The translations under genes and the position numbers were made by a program. A stretch of DNA of 64,000 bases from Sphyrna mokarran. Lineage: Eukaryota. The notes below the pieces were generated by a model. It was not told where the DNA came from. It did no database searches and was given only the letters and a program-made list of their open reading frames with translations. Below are positions 18,381 to 49,374 of this stretch, piece after piece; positions within the stretch are counted from its first letter, which is position 1, and each line of letters begins with the position of its first letter. Location: assembly GCA_024679065.1 (NCBI GenBank), contig JAGIQG010000009.1, positions 53,816,001-53,880,000 on the forward strand, in the 5' to 3' direction.

Positions 18381-19090
18381 AATAAAGTTTATTTATTAGT
18401 CACAAGTAGGCTGTGGTGCTTCGGTCCGCCTTGTTGTCCAACAAGAGGCATGTACGCGATAGGTCGTGCAAGGGCTGCTCTTGGATGTTTTGAGAGTAGC
18501 CTAGTGCTTCGTGTTGTTAGTATATGCTTAAACTGGACCAGCTGATGGGCAACATGACAGCTCAGTGACTATCACTGTTTGCTGTGCAGATATATGGATT
18601 TGGGCCAGTATCTGTAGAGTTTGCGCATTCTCCCTGTGACTGTGTGGGTTTTCTCCAGCTGCTCCAGTTTCCTCCCACACCCCAAAGATGTGCTCTTAGG
18701 ATGATTGGTGTAACAAATTGTCCCTAAATTGTCTCCCTTCAATCTGGTTTCTAATGCAGATTTCCATAAGCATAGACAAGGATCATGGCTGGAAGAGGGA
18801 ACTCACACTGTTAAAATTGTGGCGTGGGTTGTTGGGCCAAAGGGCCTTTTTCCTGTGCTGTGTTGTTCTTTGTTCTTTGTTCAATGAAGTTACTGTGAAA
18901 ATTCTCTAGTCGGCACACTCCAGCACCTGTTCAAGTTACAAGGAGGGAGAATTTAGCTTGGCCAATTCACCTAACCTGCACATCTTTGGACTGTGGGATG
19001 AAACCAGAAAACCCGAAGGAAACCCATGCAGACACAGGGAAACTCCACACAAACAGTGACCTGAGCCTGGAATCAGACCCGGGCCCTGAT
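18381..19090 (-). mobile_element. HE1 SINE (-) split by an insertion (18413-~18880) that ends in a plus-strand SINE
   Basis: The host tail AAAGTTTATTTATTAGTCACAAGTAGGCT stops at 18412 and resumes at CAATGAAGTTACTGTG near 18882. Confidence 0.75.
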
Positions 19091-20640: not shown

Positions 20641-21867
20641 TCTATTCAAGTCCTATGAGCCTTGGTTTACAAAGCTTCTGGATTAGCATTAAAGAAATGC
20701 TTTAAAGTGAGTGCTCTGTTATCCTGCCTCACAGCATGTCCGATTCATTGGCCCACCATTATTGGCACATCTCAATTTTGAAATCCTTCATTGCTTCAAC
20801 CCTCACTACCTCTTCTAACTCCACAGCCCTCCAAGATCACTGAGCTCATCCAATACTGACTTATTAAGCAACATTAATTTTAATCATACCACTACTACTG
20901 GCCATACTTTCAGCTATCCACATCCGAAGCTCTGGAATTCTTTTCTTAAACTGCTCTTTACCTTTCCTTTCTCCACAGGTACGCCTTAAAACCTACTGCT
21001 TTGGTAAGTTTTTAGTCAGTAGACCTAAATCACCTTACATAGTTTGGCGTTAAAGTTCTTCCGCATAAAGTGCCTTGAAGTGTTTGATTACATTGATTAT
21101 GATGCTTCATAAATGCTAATTATTGTTCTAAATTAAAATTAAAATGTAACTGGCTCTCTCTCTAACGCATTGTTCCCTCCCTTTCAAAACTACCTTCATC
21201 ACACTCTGCCACTTCATAAGGCTCGATCCCTCTGTCTCGGTAAATTGTCACCCACTTCCAACCTCCTTTTCTTTGAATTTATGATCACCTTTTCAAAACT
21301 GCCCATCTTCTTGTAACTGCAGTTTGACACTGACACATCCTACGACACTGAAAACATAGAGAAAAAAAGAGGCCATTTAGCCCATTCAGCCAATTCTAAC
21401 ATTCAAAAGATCATGGCAGCACTCCATTTTCCTTCATCCCCATAGCACTTTGTGTCCAAAATGTAGCAATCCCAGTCCTGAACATCATCAGTAGCTGAGT
21501 ATCTACTTGGGTAGAAATGCCAGAGTTAGGATCCTCTGAGGGCAAAAATCTCTTTATCTCAGATCTAAACAGCCAACCCCTGATCCTGAGACTCTGAAAC
21601 TTAGTTTGAGTTAGATGAGAAAAACAGCCTTCTAGCATCTATCCTGTAAAGCTCAATAAACGTTTTACATCTCCATGAGACCACCTCTCACTTTCCTAAA
21701 TTCTAAAGAAGATAGTTCCAATCTAATGAAGCCTACTCAATGGTACTTTATCAGTCCTTTTGAAAATCTGTGTGATATGTATTGAACTACCAGTGTCAAC
21801 ATTGTCTATTAGCTCTTCAAAAATTTCCACCAAGCTGGCTGAGCAAGAGCTTGCAATTCAAGTACAT

Positions 21868-22596
21868 ACATAGAACAATACAGCACAGAACAGGCCCTTC
21901 GGCCTTCGATGTTGTGCCGACCAAAATAAAAAGCAATGCCCCTCCAAACTAAACCATTCCCTTCTCTTCCATATACTTATCAACTAAACTCTTAAACGCC
22001 ACCAAACTTGGCGCATCTACAACAGCTGCAGGCAGGGCATTCCACTCCCTAATCACTCTTTGAGTAAAGAACCTACCTCTGATATCCGTCATATAACTCA
22101 TACCCCTTAATTTAAAGCTGTGTCCCCTCGTGCTAGCTTTCTCCATCCAGGAAAAAGGCTATCACTGTCCACCCTATCCAAACCTCTAATCATCTTATAT
22201 GCTTCAATAAGATCCCCTCTTAGCCGCCTCCTTTCTAACGAAAACAACCTCAAATCCTTCAACCTCTCTTCATAGGACCTGCCCTCCATACAAGGCAACA
22301 TCCTGGTAAACCTCCTCTGTACCCTCTCCAATGCCTCCACATCTTTCTTATAATGTGGGGACCAGAACTGCACACAATACTCCAAGTGCGGCCGCACGAG
22401 AGTTTTGTACAGTTGCAACATGATGCTGCGGCTCCTAAATTCAATCCCCCTACCAATAAAAGCTAAGACTCCATATGCCTTCTTAACAACTTTATCCACT
22501 TGACTGCCTACTTTCAGTGATCTATCGACACATACACCAAGATCCTTCTGTTCCTCAACACTATTAAGAGCCCTACCATTAGCCCTATACTCTACA
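21868..22596 (-). mobile_element. Young 5'-truncated CR1/HER1 LINE 3' end, same subfamily as 1417-2256
   Basis: ORF 22107-22634 encodes LYKTLVRPHLEYCVQFWSPHYKKDVEALERVQRRFTRM. Its 3'UTR is near-identical to that of the 1.4-2.2 kb copy. Confidence 0.92.
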
Positions 22597-22970
22597 AATG
22601 TGATTATAATTTGTTTGTAGTTGTTTTCCACCACTTAGCATTGATTCTAATATCTTTACCACTGCTGGTGTTAAGCTGACTGATCTACAGTTTCCAGGTT
22701 TCGTTCTTCCCTACTCGGAACAACATTCACTATCCTTCAGTCCTCTGGCACTATGTCCTCTTTTGTGGACATGTAAAACTAGGAAAGTAGGCTTGCCAGA
22801 GCATTCTGTTTCAACTTGACAATTAATATGTCAACTGGTCCTCCTCATCTCTGGCAGTAAACGCCAGCCTGTTCCTGACCAAAGTCAAGCAAGCTCTAGA
22901 ACACTGAAGCTGCCTCAAAATTGAATTACTTATAAACCACACTGGAACCAAGTTGTTATTTGAATTTAAT

Positions 22971-23715: not shown

Positions 23716-24346
23716 ACAGCAAGTTATTTAAGAACCGTTTAGAGATATCAAAGAGTTTTCCATTCTGTGTTGATGCTGGTGATTCATTCTGAGGCACAGT
23801 TCAAGGGGTCTCAGTGCCCTATGTGTAAGTTAAGACAGTGAATGATTATGAAAAATGTGGCTATGAAAAGATAGTTGTGGCCAAAACTGATGTCATTCTC
23901 ACCAGCTTTCTACATCTGTGCACTGTCAGATACACTGACCAGTTATCAAGCACAAGAGCTACAGTTAATATCCCCTTACCTTAAGATATTAGGGCCAACT
24001 GCAGTGCTATTCTATCTAAATTGGTGGATGAATCTTTAAAATGAATAAATCTCACACACAACTAGAGCTTGACAGGAAAGGGAGCTGAAGATTACATGAA
24101 GAACTATAGGCTAAGATGATCAAATTGTTCATGCTCCAGATGGCTGCATTGCTAAACAGCATTCAGTCAGTGCTTCAGTAGTGGAGATAAGGGGAATGAA
24201 ATATTCTACCATTGTGACATTTGGAATCAGGGATATTTACATAAAAAAAACTTCAGCATATATTAAATAAAATCCCTTTTGAAGTGATCCAAATTGCTTC
24301 TCAGGGTTGCTAAAGTGAGGAATCATTACCATCTTATTTACCATGG

Positions 24347-24392
24347 GACATTTCGAATCCAGATGACCCTTTGTCAAAGCTAAAAGGCATAG
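24347..24392 (-). ncRNA. Truncated hammerhead-ribozyme-like motif (family B) in the PTGS2 3'UTR, sense strand
   Basis: The mRNA strand reads AGCU-UUGACAA-A-GGGUC-aucug-GAUUC-GAAA-UGUC and is then unrelated. 46/46 identical to 25796-25841. Confidence 0.55.
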
Positions 24393-24472: not shown

Positions 24473-24891
24473 TTAAAGTTCTGTTGATTGCTCTTTCAAT
24501 AGTGCATGCCCCTGTGGATTAACATTGTTCAGACCTGAATTGGAAGATTTGGGACTGATAGAGCCTTGTTTGTTGGGTATAGATTCAGGAACACTGAATG
24601 AAACCATCGGGCAAGACCCCTTTATATTGTTGCAGACCAATTTGCTCAGTGATGCAGTATTCACAATGTCAAAACCAACTTTCCCACCAAAAGTACTAGG
24701 TTTCCAATATTCTGGGGAGCAAATGACGTTCCCCATTAAACCCTTCAAAGAGAAAGGGGCCCCCATCTCAACCATTGTTTCTCCAAATATGGATCCAGGT
24801 CTTGGTTTTTCTATCATCAAAGCAGGATACATTTCTATTGCATCAATATCCCCATAAAGTTCTCTCAGCTCAGCTGCCATCTCTTTTTCCC
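24473..24891 (-). CDS. PTGS2: PTGS2 exon 10 coding part
   Basis: ttacag|GGGAAAAAGAG; [18 protein letters not shown] ... KEQSTEL then TAA. Confidence 0.97.
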
Positions 24892-27800
24892 CTGTAATAC
24901 AAAGAAGAAATTGCAATGAAGTATAACAAATACCAAAAACTTAAAAGCTATTTTAAATGCAATTATGGAAAAGATTTAAATATGTTCTTAAACAAACCTA
25001 AGCGAGGATATTTTAGGTATCATGCATTTTCATTATCAGATGGTCTGTATCATGGTGCTTTTCATAGAAATAGAAATCCTACAGTACAGAAAGAGGCCAT
25101 TCGGCCCATCAAGATTGCACTGACCACAATCCCACCCAGGCCCTACTCCCACATATTTACCCATGAACCCCTCTAACCTACGCATCTCAGGACACTAAGG
25201 GCAATTTTAGCATGGCCAATCAACCTAACCTGCACATTTTTGGACTGTGGGAAGAAACCAGAGCACCCGAAGGAAACCCATGCAGATACGAGGAGAACGT
25301 GTAAATTTTACAGACAGTGAGCCGAGCCAGGAATCGAACCCGGGTCCCTGGAGCCGTGAAGCAGCAGTACTAACCACTGTGTTACTGTGCCACCCAGGAT
25401 AGTTCCACAAGTTCAGATGATCTCTGCTATAAATCTTTGACATGATCAACAAGCAGAGACTAAGGAGTCAGCTTAGTGAGGCATCTCACTCTTTCAAAAA
25501 AATGGAACACTCCACACTGTATTCAGGTGAGCTATGGACTGAGAAATTTGTAGGAATTGAGAAATTTGCCATCGGGTGGTGCATTTATCTACAAAATGGT
25601 AGCGTTTACTTTCACTTGAAATTTGTATCCTGGCCATGAGAATGAGAGTGGGCAGCTGAATATTTTCCAGTTTTTGTCCTCAGCATTAAACACTCACTGG
25701 TGAGGTTTTGCACAAATCAGCAGAAGAGTAAAGATGTAACCAAAAGAGAAAATGCTGGAAAATCTCAGCAGCTCTGGCAGCAGAAAAAAAGAGCTGACAT
25801 TTCGAATCCAGATGACCCTTTGTCAAAGCTAAAAGGCATAGAGAGTGGGGTGTAAAAAGGTGTTGTCTAAAAGGCATAAAAATGGGGGTGGGGTGTAAAG
25901 GGGTGTCTACTCTTTCCAGGATTGCAGCTTAACTCCCAATATCAGAAACATGACAGGCGGGATTTTCCAGCCACGTTCACCCCAAAACCGAAAAATCCCT
26001 CCCGAGGTCAATGAATCTTTCCATGGTCATCCCTCGCCCACTCCAATTCCCATAGCAGGCAGAACAGGAAAATTCAACCTGTATGTTGTCATATAACACC
26101 GTGTTGGCATTGCTATAACATTAATCATGGAAGAGTTTGCCCATTCAATACAATTACATGATAGATGCATATACAAAAAAATTGTAATTGGTTTAAGAAT
26201 ATTCCATTCTGTTGTATGAAGCATAGCATCAGAGAGGATGCCTTCAAATTCAGATTGAGCTAGATCAGATCCCAGAATTTAAAATAAAAAAATAGCCTGC
26301 TCTAATTGATCTTTACCCCTTTTGGTTATATTTGAATTGAATCAAATATTGTTTAAATACAATTTACAGATTAATATACAGATAAAAACTGTACCTGTAA
26401 GATCTTCAAAAGACTCATATGGTTTCATTAAGAAGCGTTTCCTATATTCATTCAGAGATTTGTAACGCATCTGTCGAGTTTGCTCAATAGTAGCGATAGC
26501 CACTTTAATCAATGCTGCATTCATATTTCTGCCTCCAGCAACCTATAGAAATATGAGGATCATTAACTTAACAGCCGCATGAATCCAACAGTTTCACTTA
26601 ATACTGTGAAGGATTTTGTTCTATTTATGAATACTGTGGAATATATTATTCTTTTTAGTCAAAGGTGCATTTTGTTTCTATAGTTACTGAGTTAAGAGAG
26701 TTGGGAGGTGAAGTGAAGCCAAAATTAACAGCAATATAAGGTTTACAATATGGGAGGTGTATATATTTGACACCAGCAGTTCATTATTGCAACAGAAATT
26801 ACTTTCTGTTCTTTTCTTTCCACTATGAGCTGATTCTTACCCTGCCAGCAATTTGCCTGGTGAATGAATCCACCATGTTGGTGATGCCATGTTCCAGCAA
26901 TACTGAGTTATTGAAGAGGAATTCACTGTAACTGTAGTCTCTATTCTCAATGTTGAAAGAATCTGGCATGAGGGGATGCCAATGGTAGAGGGTGTTGAAC
27001 TCTGAAGCAATCCGGTTACTGTACTGGAATTGCTGGTCGAAGAGTAGTTCTGGATCAAATTTCAGCTTGAAATGATAACCGCTTAGATGTTGTACATAAT
27101 CTTCAATGATAATTTTGATGGTCTCTCCTGTAAGCATTAACAACAGTTTGAGGATTTATTTAAAAGCAGCATATTCATGACAAAACTTTTATTTATTCCA
27201 ACTAAACTTCTAAATTGTACAGTTCTATGAATATCTATTTTGCTGTTACATGCAGGACATTGTCTCTGCACCTTAGTATACATTTGTCCAAAAGATCAGG
27301 AGCTATTTTCAAAGGCAGTTGGGTTCACTCACCTATCAGTATAAGTCGGGCTGTTTGAAACAGTCGTTCATCGTCCCAATCAGGATGCTCCACTTTCAAC
27401 ACATCACAGACGCGATTATGTTCCCGCAACCAGATTGTTGCATACATCATCAATCCTGGAACCAATCCAAAGAATTCCTGTCCCACAGCAAACTGCAAGT
27501 GTTCAGGGACATGAGGAGGATAAGTCATCTCTACCCCACTATCTTTAACAGTGGGAGGGTAGACTTCCCCATTGCAAACCTGCAATTAATTTTTGTGGAT
27601 TAGTTAAGATTTCACATAGAGCATATTGAAATAATGAAAAATAAATCAAAGATACCTGGACATGAACATGTAAATGTTACTGCCCTATTAAAATACATGA
27701 CAAGAAGCTCAGATCAAAGTACCTGAAACTTAAGTTTTCCATCTGTAAATAGTCTCAGTTTGTGCTGTCTGTCTAAAGTTTCTCCATAAACATGGCTCAG

Positions 27801-30308
27801 GTCAACCTGCACAATGCAAAACATATTAAACATAAGTAGATTCACAATTTTATACTTAATGTTAGAATAGTAAATATATTTGTAAAAAGCAAGTAAAATG
27901 ATGGATTGTGTTATTTACACCCAATATTAGTGAATTGATTTTGAAAGCAGTTCTCTGGTTTGTACTTACACCATGTCCCAAACCCCTGGTAAATGCAGGA
28001 CCTCGGCTCTGGTCAGTCTTAAAAAACTGGTGGGTAAAATGCTGAGCAAAGAAGGCAAACATCATATTGGTCCTTTGGGGATCGGGTATAAATTTCTTCC
28101 TCATCAAGAATCTTTCTGCTAAATACTTGGCATCAGGCAGTGTTTTCTTTCCTGTGTGTGAAGAGAAAAGTACATCTTGAAAACTGTTGCCATCAGCTAT
28201 TAAAGTGTCACTGTCTCTTCCCAATCCTAAGCAGTTATTTGGATTGTATTTGAATAACTAATCTTTTAAGCAAAGTCAGTACACTACTCCAAACCTACAC
28301 ACACACCACTCCAAATAAAAACCAATTGACTGTATGTGTAAAAGTGGAAGAAATAGGATAAAGAGAGTACTACCCTAAAATATATTTTTACCCATAAGTG
28401 ACATGAATTAAGTATCAGCTTATTTACTGGCAAGACCCCGGTAGAGCACAAAAGATAGGAATAGATGTGATGTGGAGATGCCAGCGTTGGACTGGAGTTT
28501 GCACAGTAAAAAGTCTCACTGCACCACATTAAAGTCCAACAGGTTTATTTGAATCCATTCACCTAATGAAGGAGCAGCGCTCCAAAAGCTTGTGATTCCA
28601 AACAAACCTGTTGGACTTTAACCAGGTGTTGTGATAGGAATAGAAGTAAATTATACAGCCATTAAAGTTAGAAAGGATGTTGTAACAGTAAAGTTTCTCA
28701 TACTATTAACTCACCAACTACTCCCATTGGAGTTGGGCAGTCTTCAGGCGTTGGTGGAAGACATCTGGTGTAGTAGGAGATATTGGCATATGCTTCCCAG
28801 CTCTTGTAATCATAATCTGCATTGTAGGTAGGGGGGCTGTCAATCAAGTTGGACCTGGCTGTTTGGAGTGGAAAAAATGTTTATATTTAGGTTCCATATT
28901 TCAAATTCACAACCAGAAACAATATATGTAGTCCTTACATCATACGGAATGAATAAAATTCACCCATTAGTGAAGAACAAGCTAAGAAATCCTTCACTCT
29001 GTCTAGCAACTGCTCAAATCTTATTAAATCCTTTCTCTTAACTACTTATGGCAGAGACATAAACATTATTTATTTTACCAACAGTACTGAACGTGCCAAA
29101 TTTTCAGAAATACATGTCTTCAATACATAACACCCAAAAGAATTCTTATTCACACTATTTTATAACTGTCCTTTGCAACTTCACGTAATTGACTCACACC
29201 ACGTGGGCTGCACCTTCTCAAGGACAATTCATTATGGACAACACATATGATCTTGCCCACATCCCATAAACGAACAGAAACAATACTATCCCCCTAATAT
29301 TAAACCTCCACATTTAATTATGCCCGTTTGTATTTAGAATGATTCATAGTGCTCCAATAAAAAAGTCATGAGCATGGGTTTATTTTTACTTACAGGTTAA
29401 GACGTAACGCATGATTCTGTCCCTTAAGAAAGGGATTTGATTCACCACGTTCCAGATTCCTGGGTAGTGGGTCAGGATGTGATGGACTGTGTTTGGAGAG
29501 GGTTTCAGGCTCAGTTTCACCCAGGTCCAAAACTCGGCTGTTGGAAGACGGGATTCAGGAGGTGAGAGTTAGCGGTTATCAGAAAGGTGAACGCCAGTGC
29601 ATAACACAAACACAAGATGAAGTGCAACTTACGTTTGGTGCAGTTCACACCGGAAAAGCCAGTCCGGGTACAATCGCATTCGTAAGCGTCCACCCCCACG
29701 GAGCTGCAAACTCCCCGGTTCTGGCAGGGATTCGAGCAGCAAGGGTTAGCTGGGAGGAAAACAAAGAGGTCACTCGGGTTCACAGATCATTTTACAGGCT
29801 CTGGTGAACAGGCTCGTGTTTCTCGCTCACAACACTGGGCTGCAACCACGGTTAATCTCAATTGGAAACGAAAACTCGGTGGGTGAAAATCACTGCTCGG
29901 CATTAAGGTTTGATGTTTATTTAGAATTATTCGAGTTAACAGGACAAATTGCCATTGCTGGGTGCTTCATTGAGGCAGACCCAACTGTTGCCCAGGCCAC
30001 AACCTACCGATTACAATCTTAAATCATATCTAAGAAAAAGATTCTCTAATATTTCTGCAGCTTTCTGTTAAATTCTTTTTTTTTACAATGAGCAGTGATC
30101 TTCCTGAGGATTGAAAGCATTCTCTCTCTCTCGGTACAACAAACGCCTACACACACTTTCTCCCGTTTCCCCTGCAGCCTGTTCTCCCCGTCTGCTGGAG
30201 ACGGGTTTTGCCATCTTTTTCCTCACCTGCTTGGCTGAGAGGAAGGATCCCGGCGAGAAGCAGCAACAACACCCCCTGGCTGTTTAGCGCGCTCAGTTTT
30301 CCTAACAT
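24473..30308 (-). CDS. PTGS2: Prostaglandin G/H synthase 2 (COX-2), spliced CDS of 10 exons, 1854 nt, 617 aa
   Basis: Exons were assembled by hand, with GT-AG boundaries and a continuous frame. Internal exon sizes are 117/144/144/182/84/247/287/148 nt, the conserved PTGS2 pattern. Motifs present: EGF domain [26 protein letters not shown] (R120), NTLYHWHP (Y385/H388) and GAPFSLKGL (S530). COX-2-type V434, R513 and V523, a C-terminal insert and terminal STEL are also present. Confidence 0.97.
25060..25395 (-). mobile_element. Near full-length HE1-type V-SINE in PTGS2 intron 9
   Basis: tRNA-like head with A box GTGGTTAG and B box GGTTCGATTCC, a V-domain and a CR1-like tail. Confidence 0.88.
25738..25841 (-). 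ncRNA. Penelope-associated short repeat (family B) with a minimal type-I hammerhead fold (25792-25830) in PTGS2 intron 9, sense strand
   Basis: AGCU / UUGACAA-A / GGGUC-aucug-GAUUC / GAAA-U-GUC / AGCU gives stem I, a U3:A8 core variant, stem II and a near-palindromic stem III. Confidence 0.6.
25953..26082. mobile_element. Small MITE-like element in intron 9
   Basis: Imperfect terminal inverted repeats ACAGGCGGGATTTTCC ... GGAAAATTCAACCTGT. Confidence 0.55.
26395..26542 (-). CDS. PTGS2: PTGS2 exon 9
   Basis: ctatag|GTTGCTGGA ... CTTACAG|gtacag; 148 nt; [37 protein letters not shown]. Confidence 0.96.
26841..27127 (-). CDS. PTGS2: PTGS2 exon 8 (catalytic Tyr and proximal heme His)
   Basis: ttacag|GAGAGACC ... 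GGCAGG|gtaaga; 287 nt; [19 protein letters not shown]. Confidence 0.97.
27333..27579 (-). CDS. PTGS2: PTGS2 exon 7
   Basis: gcag|GTTTGC ... CTGATAG|gtgagt; 247 nt; [25 protein letters not shown]. Confidence 0.96.
27723..27806 (-). CDS. PTGS2: PTGS2 exon 6
   Basis: gcag|GTTGACCTG ... TTTCAG|gtactt; 84 nt; [28 protein letters not shown]. Confidence 0.96.
27970..28151 (-). CDS. PTGS2: PTGS2 exon 5
   Basis: cacag|GAAAG ... CATGGT|gtaagt; 182 nt; contains [26 protein letters not shown]. Confidence 0.96.
28468..28635. mobile_element. Inverted pair of Penelope terminal repeats (family A) in PTGS2 intron 4, with a decayed hammerhead core (28559-28595, +)
   Basis: TAAAGTCCAACAGGTTTATTTG ... CAAACAAACCTGTTGGACTTTA inverted arms. 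Core reads TCAC-CTAATGA-A-GGAGC-agc-GCTCC-AAAA-GCTT-GTGA. Confidence 0.7.
28715..28858 (-). CDS. PTGS2: PTGS2 exon 4
   Basis: aaacag|CCAGGTCC ... GTAGTTG|gtgagt; 144 nt; [47 protein letters not shown]. Confidence 0.96.
29394..29537 (-). CDS. PTGS2: PTGS2 exon 3 (membrane-binding domain)
   Basis: caacag|CCGAGTTTTGG ... TTAACCT|gtaagt; 144 nt; [47 protein letters not shown]. Confidence 0.96.
29633..29749 (-). CDS. PTGS2: PTGS2 exon 2 (EGF-like domain)
   Basis: cccag|CTAACCCTTGCTGC ... ACCAAAC|gtaagt; 117 nt; [39 protein letters not shown]. Confidence 0.96.
30227..30308 (-). CDS. PTGS2: PTGS2 exon 1 coding part (signal peptide [27 protein letters not shown])
   Basis: ATG at 30308, hydrophobic core, donor CAG|GTGAGG. 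Phase 1 matches exon 2. Confidence 0.9.
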
Positions 30309-46497: not shown

Positions 46498-48264
46498 GGG
46501 GGTGACGGAGCCAGCTCGTTGGGGAAGCTGGCTGTTCTAGGGATGCCATTGCACAGACACCCAGTCAATCCAGAGTATTGGGAAATCTCCTGCCATATCC
46601 TGCCACCCACCCATTGACATCAAACCCCCCGCCACCACTGCCCCATCCCGGCAGAGTTACCCCTTTCCCTCCCTCCCCGGCAGTTCCCCACTTCCTTCCC
46701 AACACAGCAGATTTCCCTCCCTCCCATCCCTGCAAGCTACCCACTTGTTTGTTCCTCATCATGGCCCTGCCCTCTGGCTCTTGTCCCACTCTGGTTCCAC
46801 CCTCTCAGCACTTTCAGTAAAGTGATGGTGCCGAATGGGCATGCCAGGGTGCCCAGTGGGCAGTATCAGGATGCCAGGCAGTCAGTGGCAGAGTGCCAGG
46901 CTGGGGCTCCTATCCCACCGGCGAGGCTGTCACGTCTTCCTCCCATTGATAGGGATCATAAGTGACTCTTGACAGTGAGAGAATCACGAACAGTGAGGTG
47001 GTAGAGATAAGTAGGTGTTAGCATCCAGGACTTGTTTAACATTTAAATTGGCTTCACACCTTAACTGGGCCCAAAGTCAATTTTGCTAGTAAAAGAGTGC
47101 CATTAAGATTGGCAGAAGCAACAAACCTGATTTTTCACCTGCTGCCAATTTTACCGTCCCACCACACTGAATGTTGGGCAGGATGAGGTCATAAGATTGC
47201 AGGCACAATTTGTAAAAAAAATTGGTAAATTTATGAATCCATTTATATATAACAGGAGTTGCTGCTTCACAGTGATGATTAATCAAGAATTCCGTTTTTT
47301 AATATCTTAACCTTTACCAGTTTTTTTTACGGATCAAATTACAGGAGGCAACAGTTAAATCATAACTCAGTCACCCTGAAAACAAATAATAAAAAGTAAC
47401 ATTTGAAGGGAGATCCTGGCCACACAAGAACTGTGGCAATTTTGGAAAATCTGTTGGCATTAAAGAATCACGTTCAAAAAGGTCTGACTCATTTGCTTGT
47501 TGTAAATTTAGTAGCTCTGTATTCCTGAATTGTCGGATTCCAACAAAGCTTCCAACACACCTTCTTCCTTGAACAATAGCCCTTTTTTTGTGGACGACCA
47601 TGCATTTATCTCATTGTTTAATTTGCTTGAAGGAGATAAACCTGCCACTGGACTGGAATTCTACTGTTTTGCTTTATTTCTAACACAGACCAAAGTCCTA
47701 ATGTATAGAATAAAACAGCAATTGTTCCATTCTGATAGGCTATGCATGTCTGCAGTTTCTCCTGGTTCTTATCTACCTACGCTTAAGTCCTCTGCGCTTA
47801 GGGTAACGGAATGATTTCCTGCAAGGGAAAAGTACATAGTCCATATCAGCAGTCTCCAAATGAGAGGTAGCTTGCTTCCACACTTAACAAATTCTAATTT
47901 CTTTCCATCATGTTTCTCCCCCTCCAAACCCCTCACTGTCCCTCCATCCCCACCCCGCTAGGGCTATCTGCCACCAATCACATGCCTAACATCTTGCCCA
48001 ACACCTACAGCACCTTTCCATGCAATCATAGAAAGAATAACGCCTGCCCCCGTATTTCTTTCCTGCTCACCATCCCAGGGCCCAAACACTTTCCCGGTGA
48101 ATCATCTCCTTTAATCTGGCTTGTTGCATTCATTGCTCCCAATGTGGACTAAGCCATATCAAAGAGCTCGAATGCTGACTGGGTAACTCATAGAATCCTA
48201 TAGTGCATTAGAAGGCCATTTGGTCCATCGAGTTTGCACCAATCATAGTCCCCTGCAATCTCAG

Positions 48265-48406
48265 GACGCTGGAGGGTACACCTTACCGGGTGCCGTTTAA
48301 CTACATCCCAAATAATGAATGGGAGCTGTAAGTTCAGTCTGGAAATATAGTCTTCCTGCTGAAGAAAGGACAGAACAACTGGGTCACAGTCACATTTAAC
48401 AATGAG
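48265..48406 (+). pseudogene. NCF2: Isolated pseudo-exon encoding most of an NCF2 (p67phox)-like first SH3 domain
   Basis: tctcag|G ACG CTG GAG... translates TLEGTPYRVPFNYIPNNEWEL*VQSGNIVFLLKKGQNNWVTVTFNNE. Human p67phox (recalled) reads [47 protein letters not shown]. In-frame TAA at 48329-48331, donor GAG|gcaagt. Confidence 0.8.
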
Positions 48407-48544
48407 GCAAGTTCCAACGGAGGAATGTGCAATCTCCAGAGCTAACTGATGAGTGACTGACTGAATAAAACCATAGATTGCAAGTGACTGGCCAATAGTC
48501 CCAGGATTATATTCCAGAATCTTTTATTGTAATAAGAGGCAACA

Positions 48545-48830
48545 CTACTGGTTGCACTGCAGTTTCAGTGCCAGGGACCAGGTTTCAATTCTGGCCTCGG
48601 TCAGTGTCTGTGAGAGTTTGCTTGTAGTCGCTTAGGTTTCCTCCAGGTGCTCCGGTTTCCTCACAGAGTCAAAAGACGTGTGGGTTAGGTGGATTGGCTA
48701 CGCTAAATTGTCCCTCATGTCAGGGGATTGATAGGGTAAATGTATCAGGTTGTGAGAATAGGGCCCCAGTGGTCAGTGCAGGTTTGATGGACCGAATGGC
48801 CTCCTTCCGTACTGTAGGAATTCTATTCTA
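48545..48830 (+). mobile_element. HE1-type SINE at the 3' end of the inserted NCF2-like fragment
   Basis: CAGTGCCAGGGACCAGGTTTCAATTC head, V-domain, and tail ...GTACTGTAGGAATTCTATTCTA. Confidence 0.8.
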
Positions 48831-49374
48831 ATCCCACCCAGGCCCAATCCCCATAACTTCTCACTAGACTCCCTGACACTAAGGGGCATTTTGGAATGGT
48901 CAATCAACCTAACTCACATGTCCCTGGACTGTGGGAAGAAATTGGAGCACCCGGGGGAAACCCATGGAGACAAGGGGAGAATGTGCGAACTCCACACAGA
49001 CAGTGACCCAAGCTGGGAATTGAACCCCTGGCACTGTGAGGTAGCAGTGCTAACCTAACTATGCTGCCATGTCACCTTCCTATTGCTTTCCATTTCAACA
49101 CACCATCCTGTACTCATAGCACGTCTGCCCTTGCCTGCTGCAATGTTCTCACGAGTCCCCACGCAAACTGGAGGAACAGCACCTTATCTTCTGATTAGAC
49201 ACTTTACAGCCTTCTGGACTGAAAATTGAATTCAGCGACTTCAGAACTTAAACTCTGTCCTCCAATTCCACACCATTTCCATTTATTTTATTTCATTTCT
49301 CCTTCTCATCTTATTAATACACTTTTATTACTTTATGCGGGTGACACTTTATTTTTAAGCAGTGAGCTCTAGAT

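Follow-up and report, generated by a model that had tools for sequence, protein, structure and literature searches.

How does a single exon of ncf2, together with a piece of the intron that follows it and a SINE, come to lie inside a second SINE upstream of ptgs2? The question is raised by an insert in a 64-kb stretch of shark DNA, which was analysed as a whole and is referred to below as the window. A first-pass annotation of the window had ascribed the insert to LINE machinery that recognised an intronic SINE tail in unspliced ncf2 pre-mRNA and copied upstream from it, and had seen in the result a route of exon shuffling.

Results

An insert between two halves of a SINE

The insert takes up 576 bases (48253-48828) and, as read in the sequence and by alignment within the 64-kb window, splits an older antisense SINE. 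On the plus strand it is bordered by TAGTCCC on the left (48246-48252) and by TAATCCC on the right (48829-48835), the two 7-mers that the first-pass annotation had taken for its bounds; they are alike at six of seven bases, and pairs of 7-mers drawn at random from the window match in at least six places in 0.2% of 200,000 draws. Since the motif is single in all three intact SINEs of the same family, and since the two halves of the host SINE are collinear across it in the alignment, the flanking 7-mers are a target-site duplication, and the proposed bounds stand. The first two bases of the right copy also complete the tail repeat. The left motif, taken with the base before it (48245-48252), recurs exactly over 8 bases at 48495-48502 inside the captured intron, possibly by chance.

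Alignment with intact copies assigns both flanks to the minus strand as halves of one host SINE, as had been proposed, with the 3' tail part on the left (48190-48252) and the body and head on the right (48829-49076); the host differs from a leave-one-out consensus at 32 of 199 columns (16.1%). Beyond it, translation reveals the two parts of a repeat remnant on the plus strand, with approximate limits at 47930-48189, where depth is multi-copy in four of four runs, and at 49077-49260. We take this remnant, by resemblance, to be Penelope-like, its left part recalling the GIY-YIG region; Pfam gave no match for any of the six flank frames of these two parts (three left, three right), and none of the eight proteins tested brought Pfam support for the names Penelope or CR1. 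As regards capture by a DNA transposon of the Pack type, no terminal inverted repeats were seen, none of 24 inverted pairs joining both ends of the insert.

From exon to SINE tail

Positions 48265-48406 (plus strand) hold a copy of the ncf2 exon that encodes most of the first SH3 domain, as identified by translation, by protein matches and by the source contigs described below. The exon is 142 nt long, consists of one leading base followed by 47 codons, stands behind an AG at 48263-48264, ends at the donor GAG/GCAAGT and carries a premature TAA at 48329-48331. In the PDB it comes closest to residues 240-284 of human NCF2 (E 4.7e-12), with the family ranked second at E 1.8e-4; 40 of its 47 residues are identical to the NCF2 of three sharks, and only two of six candidate proteins for the exon peptide matched it, both of them NCF2 proteins, from two sharks, NOXA1 sequences not being among those returned. 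The p67phox-like SH3 exon of the first-pass annotation, with its one stop and its GCAAGT donor, is thereby confirmed, and the peptide, whose possible unlikeness to NCF2 had been named as fatal to the proposal, is NCF2. The earlier failure to recognise any further NCF2 exon also holds, none being found in the 64-kb window with all five shark NCF2 proteins used as queries.

The exon is followed by 131 bp of unspliced ncf2 intron (48407-48537, plus strand, delimited by the source contigs), a stretch correctly noticed earlier but put at about 140 bp. It starts with a GC donor (48407-48412) that is the same in the source copy; being weak, this donor might favour retention of the intron. An AATAAA at 48464-48469 lies upstream of the SINE, and the end of the insert is not near it. 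The signs of a processed pseudogene are absent from the insert, which keeps its intron and has neither a poly(A) nor any added tail. No RNA data containing 48253-48540 were found, and a metagenome scan returned one short unrelated match only.

The remainder (about 48538 to 48828, plus strand), characterised by family alignment, contigs and folding, is an old SINE of the ncf2 intron, in the same sense as the exon, with a damaged head and a CR1-type stem-loop tail; this tail is the 3' end of the insert and, in the alignment with family copies, the tail of the family. By resemblance, we take the element to be a putative HE1 SINE. When 13 window copies are used for a leave-one-out consensus, it departs from this at 34 of 186 columns (18.3%); 19 columns hold gaps, and its head has gaps and changes at the sites of the polymerase III A and B boxes, as these are generally placed in SINE heads. 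The tail still folds into the nested stem-loop of the family, with an inner stem that contains a mismatch, and the fold is no better than that of shuffled sequences (z -0.47, 63 of 200). It aligns with LINE-like 3' ends in the window, which have a similar fold and are presumably of CR1 type; the two best-preserved of these ends have a related but different tail, in which the flank of the stem-loop differs. Pfam gave 0 matches for the LINE-like region 1512-1910, and no tRNA genes were called in the window. Two LINE 3' fragments (1415-2257 and 21860-22634) are 96-97% alike over their last 70-93 bases, as members of a fairly young family, and their tail resembles the one on the second candidate insert described below. 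HE1 and HER1 are listed as a SINE/LINE pair of sharks (and rays) in a review of tail-dependent mobilisation (PMC3747384), and UnaSINE and UnaL2, together with stringent tail recognition in such pairs, are likewise described (PMC3747384, PMC4824008).

The source of the copy

Eight sequencing runs contain part of the unique stretch of the insert, and the contigs of four of them (X1, X2, X6 and X8) were compared with it at 80% likeness, X3-X5 and X7 being left out. Such contigs drop near-identical or rare copies and merge close variants, and the counts of differences between copy and source are to be read as lower bounds. Run X1 comes from the window's species or from a very near one: its records 3 (48455-48591) and 4 (48796-48953) both match the window with 0 differences, and the latter crosses the 3' junction of the insert. 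That record 4 starts at 48796 was considered as a sign of another copy diverging at the tail, an idea that was dropped because any SINE with that 31-mer would do.

X1 also contains a second copy, with an open frame, in its records 1 and 2. Record 1 (48262-48484) differs from the window at 6 positions, 5 in the exon and 1 in the intron; four of the five exon differences restore the residue of all three shark NCF2 proteins and the fifth turns the stop into Lys, all five lying on the insert copy's side or creating its stop. Record 2 (48455-48591) has 6 differences and 0 gaps, and shares its letter at 48496 with organisms B and C; it extends 54 bases into the SINE, and over this length the same SINE stands in the same place with the same private head gaps. 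Judged by these sequence relations, the second X1 copy is the ncf2 gene itself and the source of the insert; at least 3.6% of the bases compared (12 of 330) separate the two, and the same comparison shows that the captured SINE sat in the ncf2 intron before the copying, its insertion being older than the insert. Because its distance from the consensus so exceeds that between copy and source, the captured SINE was old when it was copied, and was no young master copy. The main prediction of the first-pass annotation, that the ncf2 locus has the exon, the piece of intron and the same sense SINE, is borne out as far as 54 bp into the SINE; the further expectation that homology ends at the SINE tail agrees with the copy, which ends at the tail of the family, the source having been compared only to 48591.

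The depth of the unique bins in X1 is accounted for by two copies, a surplus at 48273-48291 corresponding to two paths that join at 48262; the contig depths of 12.4 and 17.9 were not taken as copy number or zygosity. Organisms B and C gave one contig each, with 20 differences in 278 and 280 bases, and X8 had 14 in 223; since such contigs lose close variants, the single contigs need not mean that B and C lack the insert. Among the differences listed, those at 48388, 48433, 48483 and 48505 are found in B and C but in neither X1 copy, and since the two X1 copies agree at these four sites the copying is later than that lineage split. The contigs of X2 and X6 end 28 and 26 bases past an aligned end near 48540 (for X6, on the minus strand, this depends on how the coordinates are read), as expected if the repeat starts there too. 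The codon at 48329 encodes Lys in the source ncf2 of X1, and Glu in organisms B and C and in three named sharks.

The 5' junction

Likeness to the source and its orthologues begins at 48262 in X1, X2 and X6, the last two having unaligned letters upstream of it. The CAG at 48262-48264 (plus strand, from the contig alignments) is all that was captured of the ncf2 splice acceptor, and the 9 bases before it (48253-48261, plus strand) are extra and non-parental. The earlier statement that the exon was copied with its splice sites consequently holds for the donor, which is whole, but not for the acceptor.

These extra bases have counterparts further inside. Duplication and extra bases together (48247-48261) are complementary at 13 of 15 positions to 48475-48489 in the captured intron, where 48428-48436 is in addition identical to 48254-48262. 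In tests that were chosen post hoc, random 15-mers from the window reached 13 of 15 in 33 of 20,000 cases against the non-SINE part and in 137 against the whole insert, and random 9-mers shared 8 bases in 454 of 20,000 cases and in 882, respectively. The 9 extra bases were probably copied from inside the captured intron. This intron also has a perfect 8-base inverted repeat (48428-48435 and 48475-48482), both arms of which match the extra bases. Two other origins were considered and rejected, namely the target flank, whose best match of 7 in 9 is expected 0.29 times by chance, and a preceding ncf2 exon spliced on at the 5' end, the translation differing from NCF2.

It may be that the overhang of the target served for a short time as a primer on the sense strand, which would be the RNA if the copying passed through RNA; against such priming counts that no 5' inversions were found for ZfL2-1, whose overhang was considered too short (PMC4245944). 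Duplications of 3-5 bp are given there for the L2 and CR1 clades and of 1-8 bp for ZfL2-1, and about half of the native ZfL2-2 copies are described as having additional bases at the 5' end (PMC4245944).

Surroundings of the insert

The ten coding segments of ptgs2 were located by protein alignment at 24476-30308 on the minus strand, and among 15 cartilaginous-fish proteins the one closest to them is that of Mustelus (93.5% over the aligned segments). Two stretches with approximate limits, one past the ptgs2 stop (24345-24392) and one in its last intron (25797-25841), are alike over about 45 bases by eye and are probably two copies of a small repeat. NCF2 and PTGS2 are on the same chromosome, their contigs being equal in length, in all three sharks having both, Scyliorhinus canicula, S. 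torazame and Mustelus asterias, and their RefSeq numbers are 15, 6 and 16-17 apart, respectively, which, assuming that the numbering follows position, suggests a short distance between the two genes in these species. We infer that they share a chromosome in the window's species as well, and the insert may lie near its source.

The insert has no evident function and is one dead copy. Compared with the source, its exon shows a stop and four altered residues, and the acceptor upstream of CAG is lost; ptgs2 is about 18 kb away on the opposite strand, with the exon upstream of it and facing away. A search for a host exon on the insert's strand between 30.4 and 64 kb gave 0 Pfam matches in 119 of the 139 plus-strand frames of at least 48 codons, a scope outside which non-coding and short exons fall; the other 20 frames were left out, being judged to lie in repeats or to adjoin the ptgs2 start. 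With the exon broken, the acceptor reduced to three bases and no host gene found in 30.4-64 kb, the term exon shuffling was an overstatement.

A second example had been suggested at 18413-18880. Alignment and consensus distance place there, at 18413-18881 on the plus strand, a 133-bp flank followed by a much-decayed sense SINE, nested in another SINE as the suggestion requires, but about 13 bp of the target are deleted and there is no duplication. The SINE of this candidate is 32.3% from the window consensus, as against 19.7% for its host, a decay consistent with an old copy having been mobilised again, though it may instead stem from membership in a different subfamily; the tail has a good fold (z -2.14). 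The flank (18413-18545) has no recognisable frame and no match elsewhere in the window; it is a CpG-rich stretch.

Discussion

The insert shares with 5' transductions a source that has the same element with its upstream flank, a single enclosing duplication, and an element in the sense of the promoter. We consider it probable that it arose by one such event, in which a CR1-type reverse transcriptase primed at the intronic SINE tail in unspliced ncf2 RNA. The course of events would have begun with a sense SINE that, as the source locus indicates, lay in the ncf2 intron, 131 bp past the exon of the first SH3 domain, and decayed there. A germ-line ncf2 transcript, unspliced at this GC-donor intron, would have offered the CR1-type stem-loop tail as an internal handle; a CR1-type LINE protein would then have nicked a target within a further SINE that lies upstream of ptgs2. 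With some 2 bases paired at the tail repeats as primer, synthesis would have run back along the SINE, the intron and the exon and ended 3 bases into the upstream intron. The 5' end would have been joined with the 9 extra bases taken from inside the insert, leaving a target duplication of 6-7 bp, after which the insert would have decayed to the state that its differences from ncf2 display. Since 276 bases upstream of the SINE head were copied, an upstream promoter was required. We infer that RNA was involved, that the enzyme was of this kind, that the GC donor helped to delay splicing and that ncf2 is expressed in the germ line. The copying mechanism put forward in the first-pass annotation is accordingly supported in part, by the source junction, the end at the tail and the duplication, while its RNA intermediate, no intron having been lost, stays conjectural.

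In favour of 5' transduction are the end at the tail, the sense orientation, the short duplication and the extra 5' bases. Weighing against it are the retention of the intron, a duplication that is alike at only 6 of 7 bases and a little beyond the 3-5 bp at which CR1 and L2 peak, a tail whose fold does not surpass that of shuffled sequences, the differing tail of the two best-preserved LINE ends, and the possible closeness to the source, which is unexpected under ordinary retrotransposition. Closeness would suit a nascent RNA template still bound to chromatin as well as repair from a DNA template, and this is the main reason why the latter, although we hold it to be unlikely, is kept as a rival. 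In such a repair a staggered break in the host SINE would have been filled, through strand invasion or joining of the polymerase-theta type, by copying 570 bp from a nearby ncf2, without RNA or LINE protein. The shared and possibly close chromosomal location of NCF2 and PTGS2 in all three sharks, the lack of splicing in the insert, and extra bases templated from the donor, which DNA offers from either strand, all suit this account; templated extra bases also arise in end-joining repair. On the other hand, the 3' end falls within a few bases of the SINE tail repeats, and a break point has no reason to pick a tail; seen from that end, both the SINE and the exon read in the direction of transcription, and the insert stands between the copies of a short target duplication. 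Nor can the joint be SINE-SINE recombination, host and donor SINEs being antiparallel there.

The remaining accounts fare far worse. It is very improbable that the insert belongs to a multi-copy composite SINE family headed by the ncf2 exon, or that it is the relic of a larger ncf2 duplication: contigs that drop near-identical or rare copies leave room for more members, but the X1 depth fits two copies and X2, X6 and X8 show one contig each, and a larger duplication is contradicted by the absence of a further NCF2 exon from the window and by flanks that are the halves of one host SINE. Slighter still is the chance of a template switch or RNA ligation, in which reverse transcription would have started from an independent SINE RNA and then switched to ncf2 pre-mRNA, the exon-SINE junction being made at insertion; such chimeras are described as common for L1 (PMC13174262), but the intron-SINE junction with the same private gaps pre-exists in the source, by which this account is largely refuted. 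An assembly artefact fusing ncf2 sequence into the SINE can practically be dismissed, for although none of the contigs listed spans the whole insert or its 5' junction, X1 record 4 crosses the 3' junction without a difference, record 3 agrees with the window letter for letter and the exon by now differs from its source, evidence that is not fully independent in that X1 may be the sample behind the window.

If 5' transduction is accepted, the insert bears on how host RNAs are selected. Stringent tail recognition is usually thought to keep CR1/L2 machinery off host RNAs; the present case suggests the converse, that a host transcript containing a SINE tail may be a substrate, even when the SINE is decayed by about 15% and its promoter is damaged. 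It shows how worn-out intronic elements could move exons, and it supplies a signature that can be counted: a target duplication, extra bases, host exon or intron, and an old sense SINE running to its tail, with the source SINE in the intron. A further prediction is that such copies lie near their source. We would go beyond this single event only tentatively, in the conjecture that a shark LINE reverse transcriptase might routinely grab decayed CR1-type SINE tails in nascent, chromatin-bound pre-mRNA and paste the upstream exon with its donor near the source. Were this true, dead SINEs would serve as handles for a local, poly(A)-independent duplication of exons in genomes thought to be poor in retrocopies, the introns of sharks being crowded with decayed SINEs that have CR1-type tails.

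Relation to known systems

Orphan exon copies are known, for instance of ATM exon 30 and CFTR exon 9. The snoRNA retroposons carry host-gene sequence including exons (PMC1687206), and the insert resembles them in that LINE machinery would have inserted pieces of a pre-mRNA whose processing was incomplete, exons and splice signals included; the snoRNA retroposons are driven by L1 and poly(A), whereas the 3' end of the insert is a pre-existing SINE tail. As to flanking DNA moved by SINEs, a survey of AluY elements sought 3' flank transductions and, as described there, confirmed none (10.1101/2024.04.29.591526); it asks the same general question, which the insert poses for the 5' flank instead. 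The transductions mentioned in PMC13756887 are 3' transductions of L1 only. A literature search of partial coverage brought to light no account in which a SINE with a CR1 tail takes along a host exon on its 5' side.

The SVA element with a 3' Alu is comparable in another respect. A 3' Alu is described as raising SVA mobilisation about 25-fold, and in SVA_F1 with its 3' AluSp, as proposed for the insert, the LINE machinery finds its handle in a 3'-terminal SINE of an RNA made by polymerase II; SVA_F1 uses L1 and poly(A) and gave rise to a family, whereas the insert is a solitary dead copy (PMC3287187). With the pairs HE1/HER1 and UnaSINE/UnaL2 the insert would have in common a shared stem-loop tail that starts reverse transcription (PMC3747384, PMC4824008), and its short duplication and extra 5' bases are as in L2/CR1 inserts (PMC4245944); unlike in those pairs, the proposed template is not a polymerase III SINE RNA but a pre-mRNA made by polymerase II, in which an old tail lies internally.

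In form the insert resembles 5' transduction as described for SVA (PMC12593883) and the promoter-less or damaged intronic L1 that rides on a host transcript (RAP1GDS1/L1PA2; PMC13174262), since upstream host sequence is copied between target duplications from an upstream promoter in these as in the insert. They differ from it in element, RNA and lineage: the insert has as its element a tRNA-type SINE in a decayed state, ending in a CR1-type tail and not in poly(A), its presumed RNA was unspliced, with exon, GC donor and intron kept, and was not spliced onto the element, and its host is a shark and not a primate. While 5' transduction itself is known, an old CR1-tailed SINE that takes a 5' host exon with it would be a new form, seen here in one event.
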